Shown: positions 34,334 through 47,688 of the stretch, piece by piece
Layout: each line of letters opens with the position of its first letter
Position numbering within the stretch: position 1 is the first letter of the stretch
Source of the DNA: Waterburya sp.
GTDB lineage: Bacteria > Cyanobacteriota > Cyanobacteriia > Cyanobacteriales > Xenococcaceae
Direction of reading: 5' to 3'
Length of the DNA stretch: 64,000 bases
Assembly (NCBI GenBank): GCA_965217895.1
Contig: CBDCJV010000002.1
Coordinates: forward strand, 4,768,001-4,832,000
Notes under the pieces: generated by a model
The model's database searches: none
What the model was told of the DNA's origin: nothing
The model's input: only the letters and a program-made list of their open reading frames with translations
Position numbers and translations under genes: made by a program

Positions 34334-35410
34334 GGCTTTGTTGCATGAATAAATAAATAGACAAATCAAACCCGATTGACCAAGCTGGAATTTATGGAGT
34401 AGCAACATAACTCTCAGGTTTACAAATTTGAATCATTCGATTGAGAGCAGCGCATTGTAAAAGCAACTCCCTCGCCTGGTTATCAAATTGGCGAGAGGAC
34501 AACTTACCTCCGAAGATACATTTGAGACGAAACATCGTGGTTTCAGCCAAAGAGCGACGATGATAATCACTCTCTTGTTTCCATTTTTTACGTCCCATAG
34601 TAGCGAATCGCTCTTAAGTTCTCATCTCGTAGCAAGGGTGGAGCTTTACAATTACCATGTTGTTGAATCTTGGCATTTTTACGAGGTGGAATTGCTGCTC
34701 TTGCTTGCCTTTGAGTAATTTGCTCGTAGCAATTGTTAGTGTCGTAAGCTCCATCCCCAGACACTTGTAAAATTTCATCTTCTACACCATCAAGAATGTC
34801 TTTGAAAACTTGAGAGTCATGATAATCATTAGTTGTTACTACTGCACTGATGATCTCGCCTGTCGTTTCATCTATACCTAAATGTAATTTTCGCCATGTT
34901 CTTCTTTTAGAAACACCATGCTGTCTGGTTTTCCACTCTCCCTCGCCGTAAACTTTTACCCCCGTTGAATCTACTACTATGTGACGTGCCGACTCACTTT
35001 TCTTGACTGGTAATTCAATTTCAAGACTGCTCAAACGTCTTGATACTGTACTATGGTCGGGAACAGGCAAATCTAAATTCATTAGTTTGAGTAGAGATTC
35101 GACGAACCCGATTTGGTTGTCTTCCTGCCAAGGAAAAAACGCTTTTGATGGTACTCATGGTCGCAATCGCCGTATCACTATAAGTAGCTGATGCTCCTCT
35201 TCTTCCTGTCTTTTCATTTACAAGCCACTCTTCCACTACATCTGTCGAAAACCAAAGCGTAATACTTCCTCTGAGCTTTAGTCCTGCGTTATACTTTGAC
35301 CAGTTGCGGATGCGGTATTTATTTTTCATTGGGTAGGTTTTGGTTGTGGTTAACTTCAATCTACCATTTTGACGTTTTTATCCTTCGCAAGTTTTTTATG
35401 CAACAACGCC
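34334..35410 (-). mobile_element. IS5 family (IS903-group-like) insertion sequence
   Basis: IRs GGCTTTGTTGCAT / GGCGTTGTTGCAT; 9-bp direct repeat GTTTGTATT at 34325-34333 and 35411-35419. Confidence 0.93.
34392..35329 (-). pseudogene. IS5-family DDE transposase with two frameshifts
   Basis: RNWSKYN..RGSIT / DSTGVK..GEGEW..WRKLH, DGAYD / YHRRSLAET lie in three frames. Confidence 0.9.
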
Positions 35411-35426
35411 GTTTGTATTTATAACT

Positions 35427-36329
35427 TCATTTGACTCCGCTTGTTAAGCCAAAACCACTTAACACGATCTCAGTTGCTTTTACAAGAACGTCATCGCGCC
35501 ATTTCGCATCTGGTTCTTCCTGCGTGTAATAGATAGCAAGAATGATTGGCTTATGTTCCGACGGCCACAACACAGCTATGTCGTTTGCAGTGCCATAGTC
35601 ACCCGATCCCGTTTTGTCACCAATTTGCCAATTGGCAGGTATGGCAGCACGAATGCGTTTGGCTCCCGTAGTGTTACCCCGTAGCCACTTATTTAATTGC
35701 TGCTGTTGAGATATAGACAATGTATCTCCCAGGGTTAGCACTTGCAAACTGTGTGCCATAGTGGCTGGGGTAGAGGTATCACGAGGATCGCCAGGAACTG
35801 CCGAGTTCAGCTCTGTTTCCCGTCGGTCGAGACGAAATTCACTATCGCCGATTGAACGCGCATAGGCCGTTACCTCAGACGTACCCCCAAGAACTTTGAT
35901 TAGCAGGTTGCCTGCCGTATTGTCACTGTACTGAAGCGCAGCAGCACATAGTTCAGAGACGGTCATACCTTCGCTGATGTGTTTCTCGGTAATGGGCGAG
36001 TAGCTGACGAGATCGCCTGGTTTGTAATAAATTCGCTGTTGTAATAAACCGTCGATTTGAGTGCTTCGCGCCAAAATTGCAGATGCTGCAATTACCTTGA
36101 AGGTACTACACAGAGGAAAACGCTCTTTTGCGCGATGAGCGATCTGAGTATCATTTTCCGTGTTGAGAGCATACACGCCGAGGCGACCACCCGAAGCTTT
36201 TTCGAGCTTCGCGAGATTAGCTTGTGGGGTAACAACTTGTTCGCTTTTTGTAGCCTTCGCAGTGACTATAAGTGCAAGAGGAATAGTTGTCGCAGTCAGC
36301 AAAAATGTTCGGCGATTCATTATATTCAT
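35427..36329 (-). CDS. bla: Class A serine beta-lactamase with Tat-like signal
   Basis: STFK (SxxK), SDN, ETELN omega loop, KTG; RRTFL signal. Confidence 0.95.
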   Translation of the reverse strand: MNIMNRRTFLLTATTIPLALIVTAKATKSEQVVTPQANLAKLEKASGGRLGVYALNTENDTQIAHRAKERFPLCSTFKVIAASAILARSTQIDGLLQQRIYYKPGDLVSYSPITEKHISEGMTVSELCAAALQYSDNTAGNLLIKVLGGTSEVTAYARSIGDSEFRLDRRETELNSAVPGDPRDTSTPATMAHSLQVLTLGDTLSISQQQQLNKWLRGNTTGAKRIRAAIPANWQIGDKTGSGDYGTANDIAVLWPSEHKPIILAIYYTQEEPDAKWRDDVLVKATEIVLSGFGLTSGVK

Positions 36330-40274: not shown

Positions 40275-40415
40275 TGGGTAGTGGGGTGTTTGGGGTAATG
40301 AGGTATTTGTGGTGGTGAGGTGTTTGAGGTAATTACTCCTCTATCTCCATCACTCCACCACTCCAAAGATCGACCCTATCTTCTGTACTCCTTACTCACT
40401 ACTCCATGACCCCAT
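40275..40415. repeat. Inverted arrays of 8-9-mer GAGGTATTT-like repeats
   Basis: G-rich units followed by complementary C-rich units between convergent genes. Confidence 0.6.
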
Positions 40416-40433: not shown

Positions 40434-41021
40434 CTAATTTACTTTGATATATTCTATTGCTTTGAGCAAGGCATCAAGTATTACTTCAAAACTGTCATCA
40501 GTAGATCGAGGCAAAGTTAGTAATCCAGACTGTTCTAAAGTAATAAAGCCAAAAATTGTCGAATTTACCATTCGCATGATGTCAATCAATTTGGCTTTAC
40601 TTAAGCCTTGAGAATCTAAAAGAGTTTTGAATAAACCCTGAGATTGTTGAATTACCAAAGCTGATTCAGGCTCGTCTGGCTGCAACTGAAACTGCATCAT
40701 TACTTGAAATAGCCCTGGATGCGATCGCGCAAAATCTCGGCTAGCTAATCCCCCAGCCTTCAAACAAGCACGAGGTTCTTTTATATTTGCAGTTTTCTGA
40801 CTTAATTGGGCGAAATAAAGTTTATAAATCGCTAATGCTACTGCTTTTTTTAATTCTGCATTTCCTTGAAGATGTTTATAAATAGCAGGGGGTTTAATAC
40901 CCAATGCCCTAGCTACACGATTGACACCTAAAGCTGATGCTCCTTCTTGTTCGATACAGGCGATCGCTGCTTCAATTATATCTTGTCTAGTTAGAGAATT
41001 TTCTTTGGTTGGACGACCCAT
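40434..41021 (-). CDS. TetR/AcrR family regulator
   Basis: MGRP start; VARALGIKPPAIYKH HTH. Confidence 0.9.
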   Translation of the reverse strand: MGRPTKENSLTRQDIIEAAIACIEQEGASALGVNRVARALGIKPPAIYKHLQGNAELKKAVALAIYKLYFAQLSQKTANIKEPRACLKAGGLASRDFARSHPGLFQVMMQFQLQPDEPESALVIQQSQGLFKTLLDSQGLSKAKLIDIMRMVNSTIFGFITLEQSGLLTLPRSTDDSFEVILDALLKAIEYIKVN

Positions 41022-41096
41022 TTTTTTTATTTTCTTCTCGCTTTGTACTTCTAGATCTTGATAATTCAGGATTAATCGCTCGATCGCTTGGTTCAC

Positions 41097-41395
41097 AAGT
41101 AGCAGATAGCAAGTAGCGCAGCCTGGAGGCTGCCGACGTTGCTCCGCAACGGCGAGACGCGAAGCGCGTCTGCAAGTTCAACCTCTGCCTGAAGTCAGAC
41201 AAAGGGCTTGCCCGCATGTATTCAATTCTTGAATTATTCTTTTATCTTTTCCTCATGAATAAGGAGGCTTTAGACCAACTTCGGAGTTTTCTTAATTGCT
41301 ATCTGCGCGAACTGGAGTTCGCCGACTGCACTTTGTGCAGGCGAGCCGCTCCACGCGGCTTCTACTTGCTACTTTAACTCCGAAGGAGTTGGTAA
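41097..41395. repeat. Cluster: two 56-nt triple-hairpin elements and a 21-nt element in heptamer runs
   Basis: 41118-41173, 41199-41219, 41307-41362. Confidence 0.85.
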
Positions 41396-41561
41396 AAAAA
41401 TATGGCGTTGCTGACTACAGTTATCTGAGAAGTTTAATCAAAACAATCTTCTAATTCATTATGATTGTTATAGCTGTAATTAAATTGATAATTCTAGAAG
41501 AGCGATCGCTTTAATATTAAGCGAAATTTAAGAATTGTAAAGAAGTAACTAAAGTCCATCC

Positions 41562-43382
41562 ATGAGAATTTTACTCGTAGACGACGATGAACAGTTAATG
41601 GAGGTCTTGGCTAACAAATTAGTCGAACAGCGTTATGCTGTCGATATTGCCAGCAATGGTGAAATGGGCTGGGAGTTTCTGCTGCTGTTTGACTTCGATC
41701 TAGTGGTTCTCGACTGGATGTTGCCCGATATTGATGGAGTAGAGCTTTGCCAGCAGATTAGAGCCAAAGGCTATAAAATGCCGATTTTGCTCTTGACTGC
41801 TCGCGATCGCCATAACGATAAAGTAATGGGGTTGGATTCGGGTGCGGATGATTATGTAGTCAAACCCTTCAATTTTGACGAACTTACCGCGAGAATCCGT
41901 GCTTTGTTAAGGCGGGAAATTAGCGTATCTTCACCAGTATTAGAATGGGAAAATTTGACTTTAAATCCCAAAACTCATCAAGTACATTGTCGAGAACAAT
42001 TATTACCTCTGACACCCAAAGAATATGGCATGATCGAACTGTTTATGCGCCATCCTCAACAGGTATTTAGTCCAGGAGCAATTATCAATAACATCTGGGC
42101 GGGTGAAGATCCTCCAGGGGAGGAGGCGGTCAGAACCCATATAAAAGGCCTGCGTCACAAGCTCAAGTCTGCTGGTTTAGATAAAGATACGATCAAGACT
42201 GTGTATGGTGTTGGTTATCGTCTCAAGTCTGAAGAAGATCGACAAAGCAATCTGGTTCAAACTGCTAGCGATAAACAAAAGAGATTAGCAGCAATTACTC
42301 AAACTTGGTTAAAGTTCAAAGATGCAGCATTTGGGCGGTTAGCTGACTTAGAAAACTTTGCTAAAGCATTAGTAGAAGAGCAGGTAAACCCAGAAATACA
42401 CGCTCAAGCCAAAAGTTCTGCTCATAAGCTTGGGGGTTCGTTGGGCTGTTTTGGTTTTCCTGAAGGCTCAAAAATTGCCAAGCAGCTTGAGCAATTGTTA
42501 GATAATGCTTCTATTGAAGCTGCCGATACAAAACAATTTACAGAACTAGTTTCTGCGCTTTATACCGAATTACAACATCAGCCTTTTGAAAAGACAGTTA
42601 GAGATGCTTTGAGTAAAAATATTTCATTACTGATAATCGATCGCGACCTCGATGCTGAGTATAGCCAGAAACTATTTGCCGAAGCTCAACAAAAAGGAAT
42701 GAAAGTCTTTATAGCATCTAATCTGGAGCAAGCAGGAGCAATAACAGAACGAGAATCTATCGATGTGGTGCTGCATAAAATAACATTTCCCGATGGCGAA
42801 GATCTGACATTTCTCGAACAGCTACATCAGCATTTATCCGAGTTGCCTATTGTGGCGATCGCCGAATCGCCACAACTACTAGATCGCTTAGACATTGTTC
42901 GCAAAGGCGTTAACTTAACGTTGCAGTATCCAGTAAAGCCAAATACTGCTATTGATTGTGTTACAGAATTACTTCAAAGTTCGGGGTCTGCTGCCAAAAT
43001 CTTGATTCTCGATGACGATCCACAGGTATTACTCTCATTGAAAATATCCCTTCAGCCTTGGGGTTTTGAACTAACTACTCTTAACGATCCACAGCATTTT
43101 TGGGATGTCTTAGAAGATGTCGAACCAGATCTACTAGTACTAGATATAGAAATGCCAGAAATTAATGGTATTGAACTATGTCAAGTTATTAGAAGCGATC
43201 GCCGTTATCAGCAGTTACCAATTTTATTTTTAAGCGTACATCAAGACGAAAAAACTCAATATCAGGCTTTTGCTACTGGTGCAGATGACTATTTATGTAA
43301 ACCTGTAACTGGATCGATATTAGCTAACCGTATTCTCAATCGATTACGACGCAGTAAACCTCTGACCTCTGACCACATTTAA
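41562..43382 (+). CDS. RcaC-like multidomain response regulator (REC-wHTH-Hpt-pseudoREC-REC)
   Basis: LDWMLP receiver, OmpR wHTH, AHKLGGSLG Hpt, terminal LDIEMP receiver. Confidence 0.88.
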   Translation: MRILLVDDDEQLMEVLANKLVEQRYAVDIASNGEMGWEFLLLFDFDLVVLDWMLPDIDGVELCQQIRAKGYKMPILLLTARDRHNDKVMGLDSGADDYVVKPFNFDELTARIRALLRREISVSSPVLEWENLTLNPKTHQVHCREQLLPLTPKEYGMIELFMRHPQQVFSPGAIINNIWAGEDPPGEEAVRTHIKGLRHKLKSAGLDKDTIKTVYGVGYRLKSEEDRQSNLVQTASDKQKRLAAITQTWLKFKDAAFGRLADLENFAKALVEEQVNPEIHAQAKSSAHKLGGSLGCFGFPEGSKIAKQLEQLLDNASIEAADTKQFTELVSALYTELQHQPFEKTVRDALSKNISLLIIDRDLDAEYSQKLFAEAQQKGMKVFIASNLEQAGAITERESIDVVLHKITFPDGEDLTFLEQLHQHLSELPIVAIAESPQLLDRLDIVRKGVNLTLQYPVKPNTAIDCVTELLQSSGSAAKILILDDDPQVLLSLKISLQPWGFELTTLNDPQHFWDVLEDVEPDLLVLDIEMPEINGIELCQVIRSDRRYQQLPILFLSVHQDEKTQYQAFATGADDYLCKPVTGSILANRILNRLRRSKPLTSDHI

Positions 43383-44106: not shown

Positions 44107-44208
44107 TCAAAAGTCAGGAATTACTTCCACTTAGTTAAATAAATATAAGTTACATGGTGAAAACCGATCGCCTGAATGGATTAGGATTAAAGATTAAACT
44201 AGAAGTTG

Positions 44209-47200
44209 ATGCAAACTGTGTTTTTTCGCTTCATTATCCTGGCAAAAATTTTAAGACTCAGCCAATTATTAATAGTGTGTATCGATAAGTACATTGAACC
44301 TAATCCCGTAACCGTCGCGCCAAACACTTTATTAAAAGCCGCGATCGCTTTGTTTGCTCAACCAGAAATTGACTATATTTTGGTTGAGCAAACAAAATTG
44401 GTTGGAATTTTAACCAAGGGTGATGTATTAAGAGCAATATCAACAGAAATTGAGATAAAGACTACTACTGTGGCTAAGGTAATGACTCAGCCTGTAATTG
44501 CGATCGCAACCTCGCAATGCCAGAATATTCAATCAGTTTGGTCATTACTGCAACAACATTCGATTAAACATCTACCAATTTTGAACAATGAAGGAGAATT
44601 GATTGGAGTTATCGATTATCAGAAGTTAATTCAGTCTTTTCGGCAAACAGAAAAATTGCCAGCCGATACCAGCAATATTAGTCCTCAACTATCTAACCGC
44701 GGAAGGCGGCCAACCGCAAGCCCCGCATCGGAGCGCGTTCCCTTGCGCCTGACGGCGACGCGGGGTCGCTCCTCCTTTGCAAGGCGGGGAACGCTTGACA
44801 AGCTTTCTTATGTAACTGTGGAGGTGGTTGATGAACGGCAAGCTGCACGGCGCGAGGACAAACAAGCAGAAATTCTCCAGCAAGAACGAGATTTTTCTAA
44901 AGCTGTTATTAATACTGTCGGTGCTTTAGTAGCCATATTAGATCGGCAAGGAGTAATAGTTGGTTTTAATCGTACCTGCGAGCAGGTTACTGGATACAGC
45001 TTTGCAGAAGTTAAAGGTAGACCAGTCTGGGATTTTTTGATTCCCCTTGAGGAAAAGACGACGATAAGAGCCGTATTTGAGCGATTGTTGACGGGGCAAG
45101 TTCCCAATCAATATGAAAACTGCTGGATTGCCAAAGATGGCAGTAAAAATCTTATTGCCTGGTCGAATACTGCTTTGTTTGATGCTCAGGGTAATATAGA
45201 ATTTATTGTTGCTACGGGCATTGATGTCACCGAACAGCGAAGAATTTGGAATAAGTTAGAGCTTCAATATCGACAAACCAAACTCCTCACAGAAATTACT
45301 CGCAAAATTCGGATGACCATTGAGCTAGATAAAGTCCTGCAAACTGCCGTGACTGAAGTGCAGAATCTTCTAGCTTGCGATCGCGTTTTGATTATGGAAC
45401 TAAAATCAAACAATACAGCTATACCAATTAGTGAGTCGATCCTGCCCAATCTATCTTCTATGTTGGGTTATGAGCTTGCCGATCCTTTACTGATGGGTGA
45501 ATACATAGTGAGATACCGTCAGGGAAAGGTATTGCAGATTGATAATTTGGATGATGCGCCTATTTCTTTAGATATTAAACAGCTATTAAAACAGTTTCAA
45601 ATACAGGCTAAACTAGTCGTTCCCATTCTTTCTCATGGCGAACTTAAAGGTCTTTTGATTGCCCATCAATGTCATCATCCTCGACAGTGGCAAGACAATG
45701 AAATTCTAATGCTCAATCAGCTAGCCGATCAAATTGGCGTGGCTTTAACTCAGGCTCAATTATTTAATTATTCTGAGGAGCTAGTATTAGAAAGGACTAG
45801 AGAGTTAATCTGTACCAACGAATTATTACAGGCTGAAATTAACGAACGCAAGCAAAGTGAACAAGATTTAAGAGAAAATCAGCAAAAGCTAGCTGGTATT
45901 TTGGATAATGCAGATGAGGCAATTATTTCAATTAATGAAAGACAGCAGATTCAACTATTTAATCAGGGTGCAGAGAAAATTTTTGGCTATCAGGCTGCTG
46001 AAATTATGGGGCGATCTTTAGACTTTCTTCTACCTGAAGTATTTCGCCACGTCCATAGCCAGCAGATCAAACAATTTGCTAAATCTAGCGAACAGTCCCG
46101 TAATATGACAGAGCGGAGCAGTAGTGTATATGGTCGTCGTAAAAATGGGTCAGAATTTCCCGCCGAGGCATCTGTAGCAAAACTTAAAACCAAATCAGGA
46201 ATGCTTTTTACGGTGATACTCAAAGATGTTACCGAAAGTCAACAAGCTAGAGCCAAGCTACAGTCATCGAAAGCTCTCCTTGCCAAAGCCGAACAAATTG
46301 CCAAGATTGGTAGTTGGGAATATGACCATAAAACGAACAAACGAAGCTGGTCAGAAGAATTATTTAATATTTTAGGCTTTGATAAAGACTGTCCTATACC
46401 GTCTTGTCAAGAAATTTTAGCTCGCGTTCATCCAAAGGATCTTTTACTAGTTAAAAATACCCTTCGTGCCGGACATGGACAGGGAAAATCTTGGGAAATT
46501 ACTTATCGACTACTAACCCCCGACGGTAAGGTCAAGTATTTAGAAAGTAGAGGCGAACCAACAGTAGATTCTGAGGGTAAGGTTATTAAAGTATCGGAGA
46601 CAATTATGGATGTTAGCGATCGCATCCAGGCACAAAAATCGCTGCAACGCAGTGAACAACAGTTGAGATTAATTACCGATGCTTTACCTATATTAATCGC
46701 CTACATTGATAATCAACAACGTTACCGCTACAACAATCGTACCTACGAAACCTGGTATGGAAAATCCCGTTCTACTTTACAGGGACGAGCGATCAAAGAA
46801 ATAGTCGGAGAAGACAACTATCAAAAAATGCTGCCCTACGTTGAGATGGCACTGGCAGGAAAAACAGCTACTTTCGAGAACCAACGTATTTCCGAAAAAG
46901 GCAACTCTTACTGGATGAGTGCTACCTATATTCCCGATTTTGACTCAAATGGTGAGGTAAAAGGATTTTTCTCAATGGTGGAAGATATTACCGACCGTAA
47001 GGCAGTAGAACAGATGAAAAGCGAATTTATCTCCATTGCCAGTCACGAAATGCGAACTCCCTTAACTTCGATTCATGGTGTAGTAAAATTACTCTGCGCT
47101 GGTCGCTTGGGAGAACTGTCTGAATCAGGAGCCAAAATGGCAGATATGGCTCTGAGAAATAGCGATCGCTTAAAACGCTTAGTTAACGATATTCTTGACT

Positions 47201-47688
47201 TGGAACGAATGGAGTCGGGCAGAGATAGTATTGAAAAACAAAGGTGTAATAGTGCTGAATTGATCCAGCAGGCAATAGATACCACTCGCTCGATGGCAGT
47301 CGAACAGGGAGTTAGTCTCGAAAGCGATTCTCAATCTGAGGAATTTTTAGGCGATCGCGATCGCTTAGTACAGACCTTAACTAATCTTATTGGCAATGCC
47401 ATTAAGTTCTCAACTGCCGATAGTAAAGTTTCGATCTCTTCTCGATTGGAAAATAACAACGTTCTCTTTGCTGTTAAAGATCGAGGCAGAGGCATTCCCA
47501 CAGACAAGCTAGAAACTATCTTTGAACGCTTTCAACAGGTAGACGCTTCCGATGCTCGAAAAAAAGGAGGCACGGGTTTGGGTTTGGCTATTTGTCGTCA
47601 TATTGTCGAGCAGCATCGGGGAAAAATTTGGGTAGAAAGCGTTTATGGTCAGGGCAGCACCTTTTTCTTTTCTTTACCAAAACAATAA
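44209..47688 (+). CDS. Sensor histidine kinase: CBS-PAS-GAF-PAS(x3)-HisKA-HATPase
   Basis: CBS pair, CBCR-like GAF (DRVLI...LLIAHQC), SHEMRTPL H-box, N/G1/F/G2 boxes; start uncertain. Confidence 0.9.
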   Translation: MQTVFFRFIILAKILRLSQLLIVCIDKYIEPNPVTVAPNTLLKAAIALFAQPEIDYILVEQTKLVGILTKGDVLRAISTEIEIKTTTVAKVMTQPVIAIATSQCQNIQSVWSLLQQHSIKHLPILNNEGELIGVIDYQKLIQSFRQTEKLPADTSNISPQLSNRGRRPTASPASERVPLRLTATRGRSSFARRGTLDKLSYVTVEVVDERQAARREDKQAEILQQERDFSKAVINTVGALVAILDRQGVIVGFNRTCEQVTGYSFAEVKGRPVWDFLIPLEEKTTIRAVFERLLTGQVPNQYENCWIAKDGSKNLIAWSNTALFDAQGNIEFIVATGIDVTEQRRIWNKLELQYRQTKLLTEITRKIRMTIELDKVLQTAVTEVQNLLACDRVLIMELKSNNTAIPISESILPNLSSMLGYELADPLLMGEYIVRYRQGKVLQIDNLDDAPISLDIKQLLKQFQIQAKLVVPILSHGELKGLLIAHQCHHPRQWQDNEILMLNQLADQIGVALTQAQLFNYSEELVLERTRELICTNELLQAEINERKQSEQDLRENQQKLAGILDNADEAIISINERQQIQLFNQGAEKIFGYQAAEIMGRSLDFLLPEVFRHVHSQQIKQFAKSSEQSRNMTERSSSVYGRRKNGSEFPAEASVAKLKTKSGMLFTVILKDVTESQQARAKLQSSKALLAKAEQIAKIGSWEYDHKTNKRSWSEELFNILGFDKDCPIPSCQEILARVHPKDLLLVKNTLRAGHGQGKSWEITYRLLTPDGKVKYLESRGEPTVDSEGKVIKVSETIMDVSDRIQAQKSLQRSEQQLRLITDALPILIAYIDNQQRYRYNNRTYETWYGKSRSTLQGRAIKEIVGEDNYQKMLPYVEMALAGKTATFENQRISEKGNSYWMSATYIPDFDSNGEVKGFFSMVEDITDRKAVEQMKSEFISIASHEMRTPLTSIHGVVKLLCAGRLGELSESGAKMADMALRNSDRLKRLVNDILDLERMESGRDSIEKQRCNSAELIQQAIDTTRSMAVEQGVSLESDSQSEEFLGDRDRLVQTLTNLIGNAIKFSTADSKVSISSRLENNNVLFAVKDRGRGIPTDKLETIFERFQQVDASDARKKGGTGLGLAICRHIVEQHRGKIWVESVYGQGSTFFFSLPKQ
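44698..44794 (-). repeat. Nested structured repeat inserted in-frame in the kinase gene
   Basis: 44733-44771 is the reverse complement of the 39-nt scaffold at 47796-47834 (1 mismatch). Confidence 0.88.

Follow-up and report, generated by a model that had tools for sequence, protein, structure and literature searches.

The window analysed here is a 64,000-nt stretch of the Waterburya sp. chromosome. At positions 41092-41391, on the minus strand, it carries a 300-nt gene-less mini-element of IS200/IS605-like organization, which we call the host since it houses two copies of a three-hairpin cassette. The host adjoins a TetR gene (40434-41096) and a response regulator gene (41562-43382), two divergent regulators. 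Beside its left end lies a TTAC target (41392-41395, read as GTAA on the plus strand), which is found at 28/28 host copies. The left end itself (41372-41390, minus strand) consists of a hairpin (41376-41390) and a guide-like AAAG motif (41372-41375) at element positions 17-20. Two heptamer runs form the arms of a long terminal stem: a left run of CAAGTAG type (41096-41176, plus strand), split by cassette copy 1, and a right run of CTACTTG type (41296-41374, plus strand), split by cassette copy 2. The initial annotation had noted the opposite orientation of these runs. It is a property of the host, whose paired arms the runs are: when the shortest host copy is folded, one heptamer run pairs with the other, which explains why they are opposed. 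A distinct 20-nt mini-insert (41200-41219, plus strand) replaces the GG of other host copies, and this 20-nt segment is multi-copy in the relatives G020, G021, and G023. The TetR protein probably starts at an ATG near 41021 and not at the GTG at 41096, which lies inside the host. No empty allele was found for the site that the host occupies in the window; in G023 the DNA upstream of the TetR orthologue is different, with neither host nor cassette. The two genes have different neighbours in sequencing run X3 and in G023, placing the host at a break in gene order.

In the genome as a whole, 28 host copies of 167-363 nt occupy 18 distinct sites. The position of copy 1 is filled in 15 of the 28 and otherwise empty, while at the position of copy 2 cassettes of several types occur, in either orientation, together with 4 decayed remnants and 6 empty alleles. 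Contigs from sequencing runs contain other host copies, one of them with an empty second site. Joined host flanks match intact DNA without a gap at 2/18 sites, and at these two readable sites the host inserted without duplicating or deleting target DNA; the other 16 have no clean empty allele. The two empty alleles lie at C2:169395-169494 (99% identity over 100 nt, in a transposase gene of the present genome, G000, that we take to be IS982-like) and at C2:4610539-4610597. All copies retain the left-end hairpin. Positions 17-20 read AAAG in 9/28 copies and TAAG or GAAG in the rest, with AAG at 17-19 in 28/28. IS608 is described as inserting 3' of TTAC with no gain or loss of DNA, using an AAAG guide (PMC3201880). 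The host resembles it in the TTAC target, the lack of gain or loss, the end hairpin, and a motif close to AAAG some 17-20 nt in from the left end, but it ends on the right in TGAA rather than TCAA and is gene-less in a genome with no intact TnpA. A guide at the right end was looked for and not identified. Judged by these sequence features, the host seems to work like a non-autonomous IS200/IS605 element. G197 and G023 carry many cassettes and have no match to the host pattern. With regard to an origin of the host from an IscB guide RNA, no RRXRR gene was matched in the genome, but the control was matched nowhere either.

Other small inserts were observed in and around the host. The TGAAG at 41190-41194 is an unoccupied target of another multi-hairpin cassette family, the second in this host, which in the host copies at G000:C2:337313 and C2:1876465 appears as 59 nt replacing these 5 or 58 replacing 4. 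Two more families lie further right in the host copies at C2:723085 (about 60 nt) and C2:4636344 (net 48 nt). A lone GGCGTTGCTGA end of a terminal-inverted-repeat MITE is found at 41404-41414, separated from the host by 12 nt; full-length MITEs that share this end, and which we presume to resemble Nezha, carry cassettes at C2:1840126, 2753396, 2972989, 411236, and 4610143.

Cassette copy 1 spans 41118-41171 (arm 1, 41118-41133; arm 2, 41134-41154; arm 3, 41155-41171) and copy 2 spans 41307-41360 (arm 1, 41307-41322; arm 2, 41323-41343; arm 3, 41344-41360), both on the plus strand. Inspection of the sequence confirmed the coordinates, stems, and linkers given for both three-hairpin units in the initial annotation. 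Its length of 56 nt was corrected to 54 nt: the A that follows GGCG pairs with the T that follows the third stem, which makes the third arm 6 bp long. The sequences CGAC and GGCG are likewise present as described, but they are not linkers: they pair with each other (CG.CG, one A.G mismatch, C.G) as part of the middle stem. The arms thus comprise 6 bp, 8 bp plus the mismatch, and 6 bp, and they abut without an unpaired base. With the flanking target C and G paired, the three arms would become part of a four-way junction. The two copies are identical at 32/54 bases, and when copy 1 was used as a BLASTN query (word 11, word 7, or blastn-short) there was no match to copy 2, as had been predicted. 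DNA folding gives three arms on either strand of either copy, with z scores of -2.6 to -4.4 against shuffles.

The same design was found in 91 distinct cassettes, of which 35 measure 53 nt, 52 measure 54 nt, and four measure 55 nt. The closing pair is G-C for arm 1 in 90 and A-T for arm 3 in 90, counts that are partly due to the rule by which cassettes were selected. Folded as DNA, 81/91 and 87/91 keep all three arms on the respective strands. Inner stems of 3, 4, and 6 bp occur in the middle arm in relatives (14 contexts), showing that the geometry is not absolutely fixed.

How widespread is the cassette? The strict descriptor put forward in the initial annotation matched the 5.29-Mb genome 30 times; 29 of these matches are clear family members and one is an AT-rich chance match. 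A looser descriptor yielded 53 cassette loci; two control chromosomes made by local shuffling gave 0 matches each. The proposal of a repeated element with conserved structure and variable sequence is therefore upheld by many further copies in this genome and in its relatives. One host mini-element family contains 31 of the 53 loci. The remaining 22 were assigned by eye: some lie in MITEs of three terminal-inverted-repeat families or in a second MITE of TTAC type, others in a hairpin repeat or in heptamer runs that belong to no larger element. None of the 53 lies in a long open frame.

The genus was surveyed with a sequence pattern that has no built-in pairing; the reversed-pattern control gave 0 matches. 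The first pattern matched 10/39 genus genomes (among them G000 with 40 matches, G019 with 37, G197 with 26, G023 with 5, G020 with 4, and G011 with 3), and paired stems in nearly all of the matches listed indicate true copies in 10 of the 39. A second pattern matched 14/39, a few of them by chance. An order-wide search matched 13/401 genomes; among the matches listed outside the genus, only those in G210 have paired stems, and the others are chance-like. Among the matches listed from a scan of all genomes, four of the 85 examined (including two viral) fold into three arms, and all four are cyanobacterial records, including Pleurocapsa sp. In metagenomes the first pattern matched 0 loci and the second 8, of which 5 fold with three arms. 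A covariance-model search that scored 35 candidates in each of 150 phylum genomes returned nothing, which we do not take as absence. Going by these sequence matches, the cassette family appears to be genus-centred, with one genome and a few metagenome contigs outside the genus. No printed description of the cassette was found in the literature searched, which leaves out most subscription papers; the family is real and, within that literature, apparently undescribed.

Could the cassette serve the cell? A cis-regulatory or small RNA structure under selection, such as a terminator or stability element in the gap between the TetR and response regulator genes, would fit the stable RNA fold that the cassette also adopts and its position between two divergent regulators. 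An Rfam scan, which the initial annotation had suggested, gave no family match: six weak matches all fell under their gathering thresholds, and there were 0 at E<=1 over 13 loci. Moreover, the cassette is patchy within one genus, its pairing is strand-symmetric, it sits inside mobile elements and not at fixed genes, and the DNA upstream of the TetR orthologue in G023 contains neither host nor cassette. We consider a function of this kind scarcely credible.

The cassette had been described in the initial annotation as inserted after GC, a reading that the empty alleles contradict: at 15/18 readable non-repeat sites it replaces 5 target bases without duplication, the net gain being the cassette length minus 5. 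The empty-site search that the initial annotation had put forward thus revealed a five-base replacement, and not plain insertion, at most readable sites. Readable here denotes non-repeat sites with an empty allele, and for many further site clusters there was none; the empty alleles are mostly paralogues or from other species, rather than from a sister strain at the identical locus. In view of the 5-nt loss at non-repeat sites, the alternative of a 2-nt GC duplication was abandoned. When the target is the hairpin repeat family, the gap is 5 in 37/38 paired matches, and at locus L075 it is 5 in 14/17. Replacement of 5 nt was also read at L077/L177, L130, L145/L148, L154, L186 (where the left anchor is weak), and a site in an IS605-like MITE. 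The same rule holds for four cassettes that landed inside another cassette (L082, L189, L157, and L179), the lost bases being deduced from the symmetry of the outer cassette; for L179 this symmetry of the stems indicated 5, although BLAST anchoring had given 6. The exceptions are L079 (4 nt), L178 (6 nt), and a 49-nt short-arm variant in L013 (an inferred 4 nt).

Coding sequences offer another view of this rule. Because 53 minus 5 is 48, the 53-nt form adds 16 residues and leaves the frame unbroken. In the RRXRR protein of G210, a 53-nt cassette adds exactly 16 residues relative to 16 homologues, and in the TnpB of G197 a 53-nt cassette adds 16 relative to the TnpB of the present genome. The TnpB of G013 also has 16 added residues, by weaker inference.

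Heptamer runs are one target class beside hairpin repeats, other cassettes, and TnpB and RRXRR genes. In such runs the gaps to empty alleles are mostly -9, -2, 5, 12, 19, and 26, i.e., 5 modulo 7, and the other values come from decayed cassettes or from anchoring. A noisy recount with short anchors gave a mode of 5 in 11/19 rows and 6 in one, with the rest unclear or empty. Among 41 site clusters, C precedes the cassette at -1 in 32 and G follows it at +1 in 32; pairing beyond these bases is weak (13-17/41 site clusters). The cassette thus prefers C-N5-G targets. Each repeat of a TAGCAAG run contains one GC-N5-GC, which accounts for the preference for heptamer runs, and a 5-base replacement in a 7-nt run mimics a 2-nt GC duplication. 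A period of seven, GC plus five, is thus a simple reason for the gathering of such elements in heptamer repeats.

Three other accounts of targeting or insertion were rejected. A hairpin loop as the general target is at odds with the weak outer pairing and with nested insertions, which strike stems and junctions of the outer cassette. Self-targeting by arm sequence conflicts with the finding, made by eye, that one site may hold different arm sets while a given set of arms recurs at several sites. If a 48-nt circle had integrated by conservative recombination, one would expect the five target bases, or a 5-nt repeat, at the junction, and neither was seen.

These footprints bear on whether the cassette moves by itself. 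It might instead be non-mobile, having arisen once or a few times and been carried by mini-transposons and gene conversion, with its stems a neutral product of template switching. The concentration of 31/53 loci in one host family and of most others in other repeats is what such passive spread would give, as are the mosaic arms and the absence of all 53 loci from long open frames. Against this, the 41 site clusters have unrelated flanks and include single-copy TnpB and RRXRR sites as well as other cassettes, and nearly all readable sites share the 5-nt loss. Gene conversion needs flank homology, which the sites do not share, so passive spread is largely refuted and we regard it as unlikely. 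The cassette is very probably an independently mobile element with a 5-nt replacement footprint.

Does it move as DNA or through an RNA copy? Stem sequences vary widely among the 91 distinct cassettes, with 17 types for arm 1, 21 for arm 2, and 20 for arm 3, while 1785/1820 stem pairs are Watson-Crick. The high Watson-Crick share is partly due to the search filters; the balance of 3 G-T to 4 A-C pairs is independent of them. There is no G-U excess and no strand-specific wobble. In 13 aligned copies, 97% of cells pair and 10/22 pairs change on both sides, a number reached in 0/500 shuffles and not in slid controls, which also lie below; the rows are related by descent, and the shuffle result is therefore not a probability. 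In 8 stem types the loop is found in either orientation, and 25/91 distinct cassettes have the entire middle arm inverted (CGCC...GTCG). Arms 1 and 3 have three inner stems in common, and four-gamete conflicts for all three arm pairs (25, 23, and 16) reveal mosaic arm combinations. Remnants of 16-17 nt derive from deletions between like loops. Watson-Crick stems without a G-U excess, loop flips, and arm recombination together favour an element acting at the DNA level. Template switching is described as perfecting palindromes and inverting loops in one step (bioRxiv 10.1101/2023.04.19.537475), and by analogy perfect stems can arise in this way without selection on shape.

A reverse transcriptase, for example that of a group II intron, could alternatively prime cDNA at a target nick, a second cut 5 nt upstream deleting the bases between. 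R2 target-primed reverse transcription is reported to cut the second strand 2 nt upstream (PMC11204384), and an RNA-copy route has been suggested for the double-hairpin elements of Allomyces on the ground that these show no target duplications (PMC2800124). Reverse transcriptase matches occur in 37/39 genus genomes, and cassette-rich genomes are rich in them (G000 8, G019 16, G020 13, G023 26, and G197 14). G186, though, has 22 such matches and neither cassette pattern, and these counts are confounded by assembly quality. The lack of a G-U excess and the presence of loops and of the whole middle arm in both orientations also speak against an RNA intermediate, as does the lack of truncated-end or tailed copies among the 100 contexts listed, in a search that required both ends. 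We consider the RNA-copy route possible but doubtful.

A four-armed derivative was noted in connection with G000:C2:3392155 and L082. It is explained as one cassette nested in another, with a subsequent deletion between the identical first arms of the two, and the undeleted form is found in G020.

The closest known elements, judged from descriptions in citing papers, are the small dispersed repeats SDR1-8 of Nostoc punctiforme and its relatives. In 2008 Elhai et al. reportedly found that SDR structure is kept by compensatory changes and that SDRs lie in heptamer runs, minitransposons, and copies of themselves. The upper bound of SDR length is about 27 nt. Like SDRs so described, the cassette is dispersed and multi-copy, shows compensatory changes, and sits in heptamer runs, minitransposons, and its own copies. 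Both are tiny gene-less dispersed cyanobacterial repeats judged to be mobile (PMC4390886, PMC5861425, PMC13756078, PMC2884548, PMC3116915). SDRs are given as about 20 nt (PMC2884548), and SDR5 as 21 nt (PMC13756078), whereas the cassette measures 53-55 nt. According to PMC5861425 SDRs have been reported only in Nostocaceae; the cassette belongs to a Pleurocapsa-like genus outside that family. SDR5 is said to insert between the third and fourth base of HIP1 (PMC4390886), and by eye no split HIP1 was seen among the flanks of the 41 cassette site clusters. The cassette thus works like the Nostoc SDRs but departs from them in length, lineage, and the SDR5 target. The tables or supplements of the SDR paper may hold families related to it.

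Other families of small repeats are more distant. The Allomyces mitochondrial double-hairpin elements and the repetitive hairpin-forming elements of sponge mitochondria are described as short, multi-hairpin, and patchy among relatives, and for the former no target duplication is reported (PMC2800124). In contrast to the cassette, both reside in organelle genomes, and the name of the former implies two hairpins rather than three abutting arms; a fixed target loss is not stated in the part of PMC2800124 that describes them. The portion of PMC4478555 on mitochondrial hairpin elements holds nothing decisive for the comparison. REPs are stem-loops of 20-40 bp with a GTAG or CGTC tag at one end and are present in cyanobacteria (PMC3733652, PMC3116915). 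Like REPs and REPINs, the cassette is small, palindromic, non-autonomous DNA in dozens of copies, but with three arms and no constant tag it was rejected as a REP; only the C at -1 and the G at +1 are common to its flanks, and none of the 53 loci lies near the one RAYT-like match (G000:C2:2354836). MITEs of the terminal-inverted-repeat type have terminal inverted repeats of 15-30 bp (PMC3733652). This identity was also rejected, as the cassette ends are separate hairpins and the target loses 5 nt without duplication, and so was that of an IS200/IS605 mini-element, as there is no fixed tetranucleotide and 5 nt are lost.

What enzyme might move the cassette? The genome contains no intact Y1 transposase (TnpA), the RAYT-like match at G000:C2:2354836 being broken, and no long or gene-bearing form of the cassette was found in this genome. 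Across the 39 genus genomes, counts of Y1, reverse transcriptase, and IS110 matches do not follow cassette counts, although all such counts are confounded by assembly quality and kinship. IS110-like matches occur in 26/39 genus genomes, with none in G197. The mobilising enzyme may have been lost after a burst of cassette spread. Two divergent IS110/DEDD-like ORFs of 442 and 410 aa with weak Pfam scores were observed at G000:C2:3923021 and C2:2845720; similar weak matches also occur in cassette-free genomes.

The Y1 counts weigh on one further possibility, that the cassette is a minimal palindrome-associated passenger of IS200/IS605 single-strand transposition. Its carriers of IS200/IS605 type include the host in the window, the second TTAC-type MITE, three TnpB genes, and the RRXRR gene, and TnpA is known to read DNA hairpins (PMC3201880). 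Yet cassette insertion removes 5 nt and shows no constant tetranucleotide, whereas IS608 is described with a fixed target and neither gain nor loss (PMC3201880). G020 has no Y1 match and G000 a broken one, and the Y1-rich genomes G194 (41 matches), G185 (27), and G186 (18) have no match to the cassette pattern. Transport by TnpA is accordingly very unlikely.

We favour a model, to which we assign a probability of roughly 55%, in which the cassette moves as folded single-stranded DNA by means of an enzyme that reads its shape and makes two target cuts 5 nt apart. Such an enzyme would recognise the three-arm shape and the branch-point bases of the folded single-stranded cassette; the 5-nt piece released by the two target cuts would be lost. 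Template switching during replication would keep the stems perfect and flip the loops, copies would exchange arms via recombination or gene conversion, and mini-transposons such as the host would then carry cassettes along passively. More tentatively, we propose a "cut out and replace" integration in which the enzyme might read a four-way single-stranded DNA junction by its shape and its four branch-point pairs (C-G, G-C, C-G, and A-T), ignore the arm sequences, and put the three-arm unit in place of five nucleotides of a target whose sequence is only loosely defined. Other tiny inserts of these genomes, each with its own fixed loss, would then be substrates of the same or sister enzymes. If true, this would be an undescribed integration reaction.

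Why should an element of this size attract attention? It is a handle on the spread of gene-less repeats of 20-60 bases in cyanobacterial genomes, with a defined substrate (three arms and a fixed branch point) and a defined footprint (five bases lost and none duplicated). That footprint does not match the IS families considered here, which either duplicate target bases or insert precisely. In addition, a single genus offers genomes with dozens of cassettes and genomes with none.

Several minor features were recorded in the window and in related sequences. At about 44696-44790, inside ORF 44206-47688, a PAS/GAF histidine kinase gene contains an in-frame composite of hairpin repeats. One component, at 44733-44774 on the minus strand, is a cassette-free copy of the hairpin repeat that is targeted elsewhere by the cassette and has dozens of copies in the genome. 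Other in-frame peptide inserts occur in the RRXRR homologues P0008, P0027, P0028, P0036, and P0080 (alignment A5), including an 18-residue insert in three proteins and a long one in P0080; P0008 has an N-terminal RRRTPVR stretch resembling the cassette's translation. The segment 34588-36329 contains a split transposase (34588-35359) beside an ORF (35427-36329) that, by its motifs, we take to be class A beta-lactamase-like. Downstream of the TetR gene, at 40277-40414, short G-rich and C-rich repeat runs mirror each other and form a long imperfect inverted repeat.
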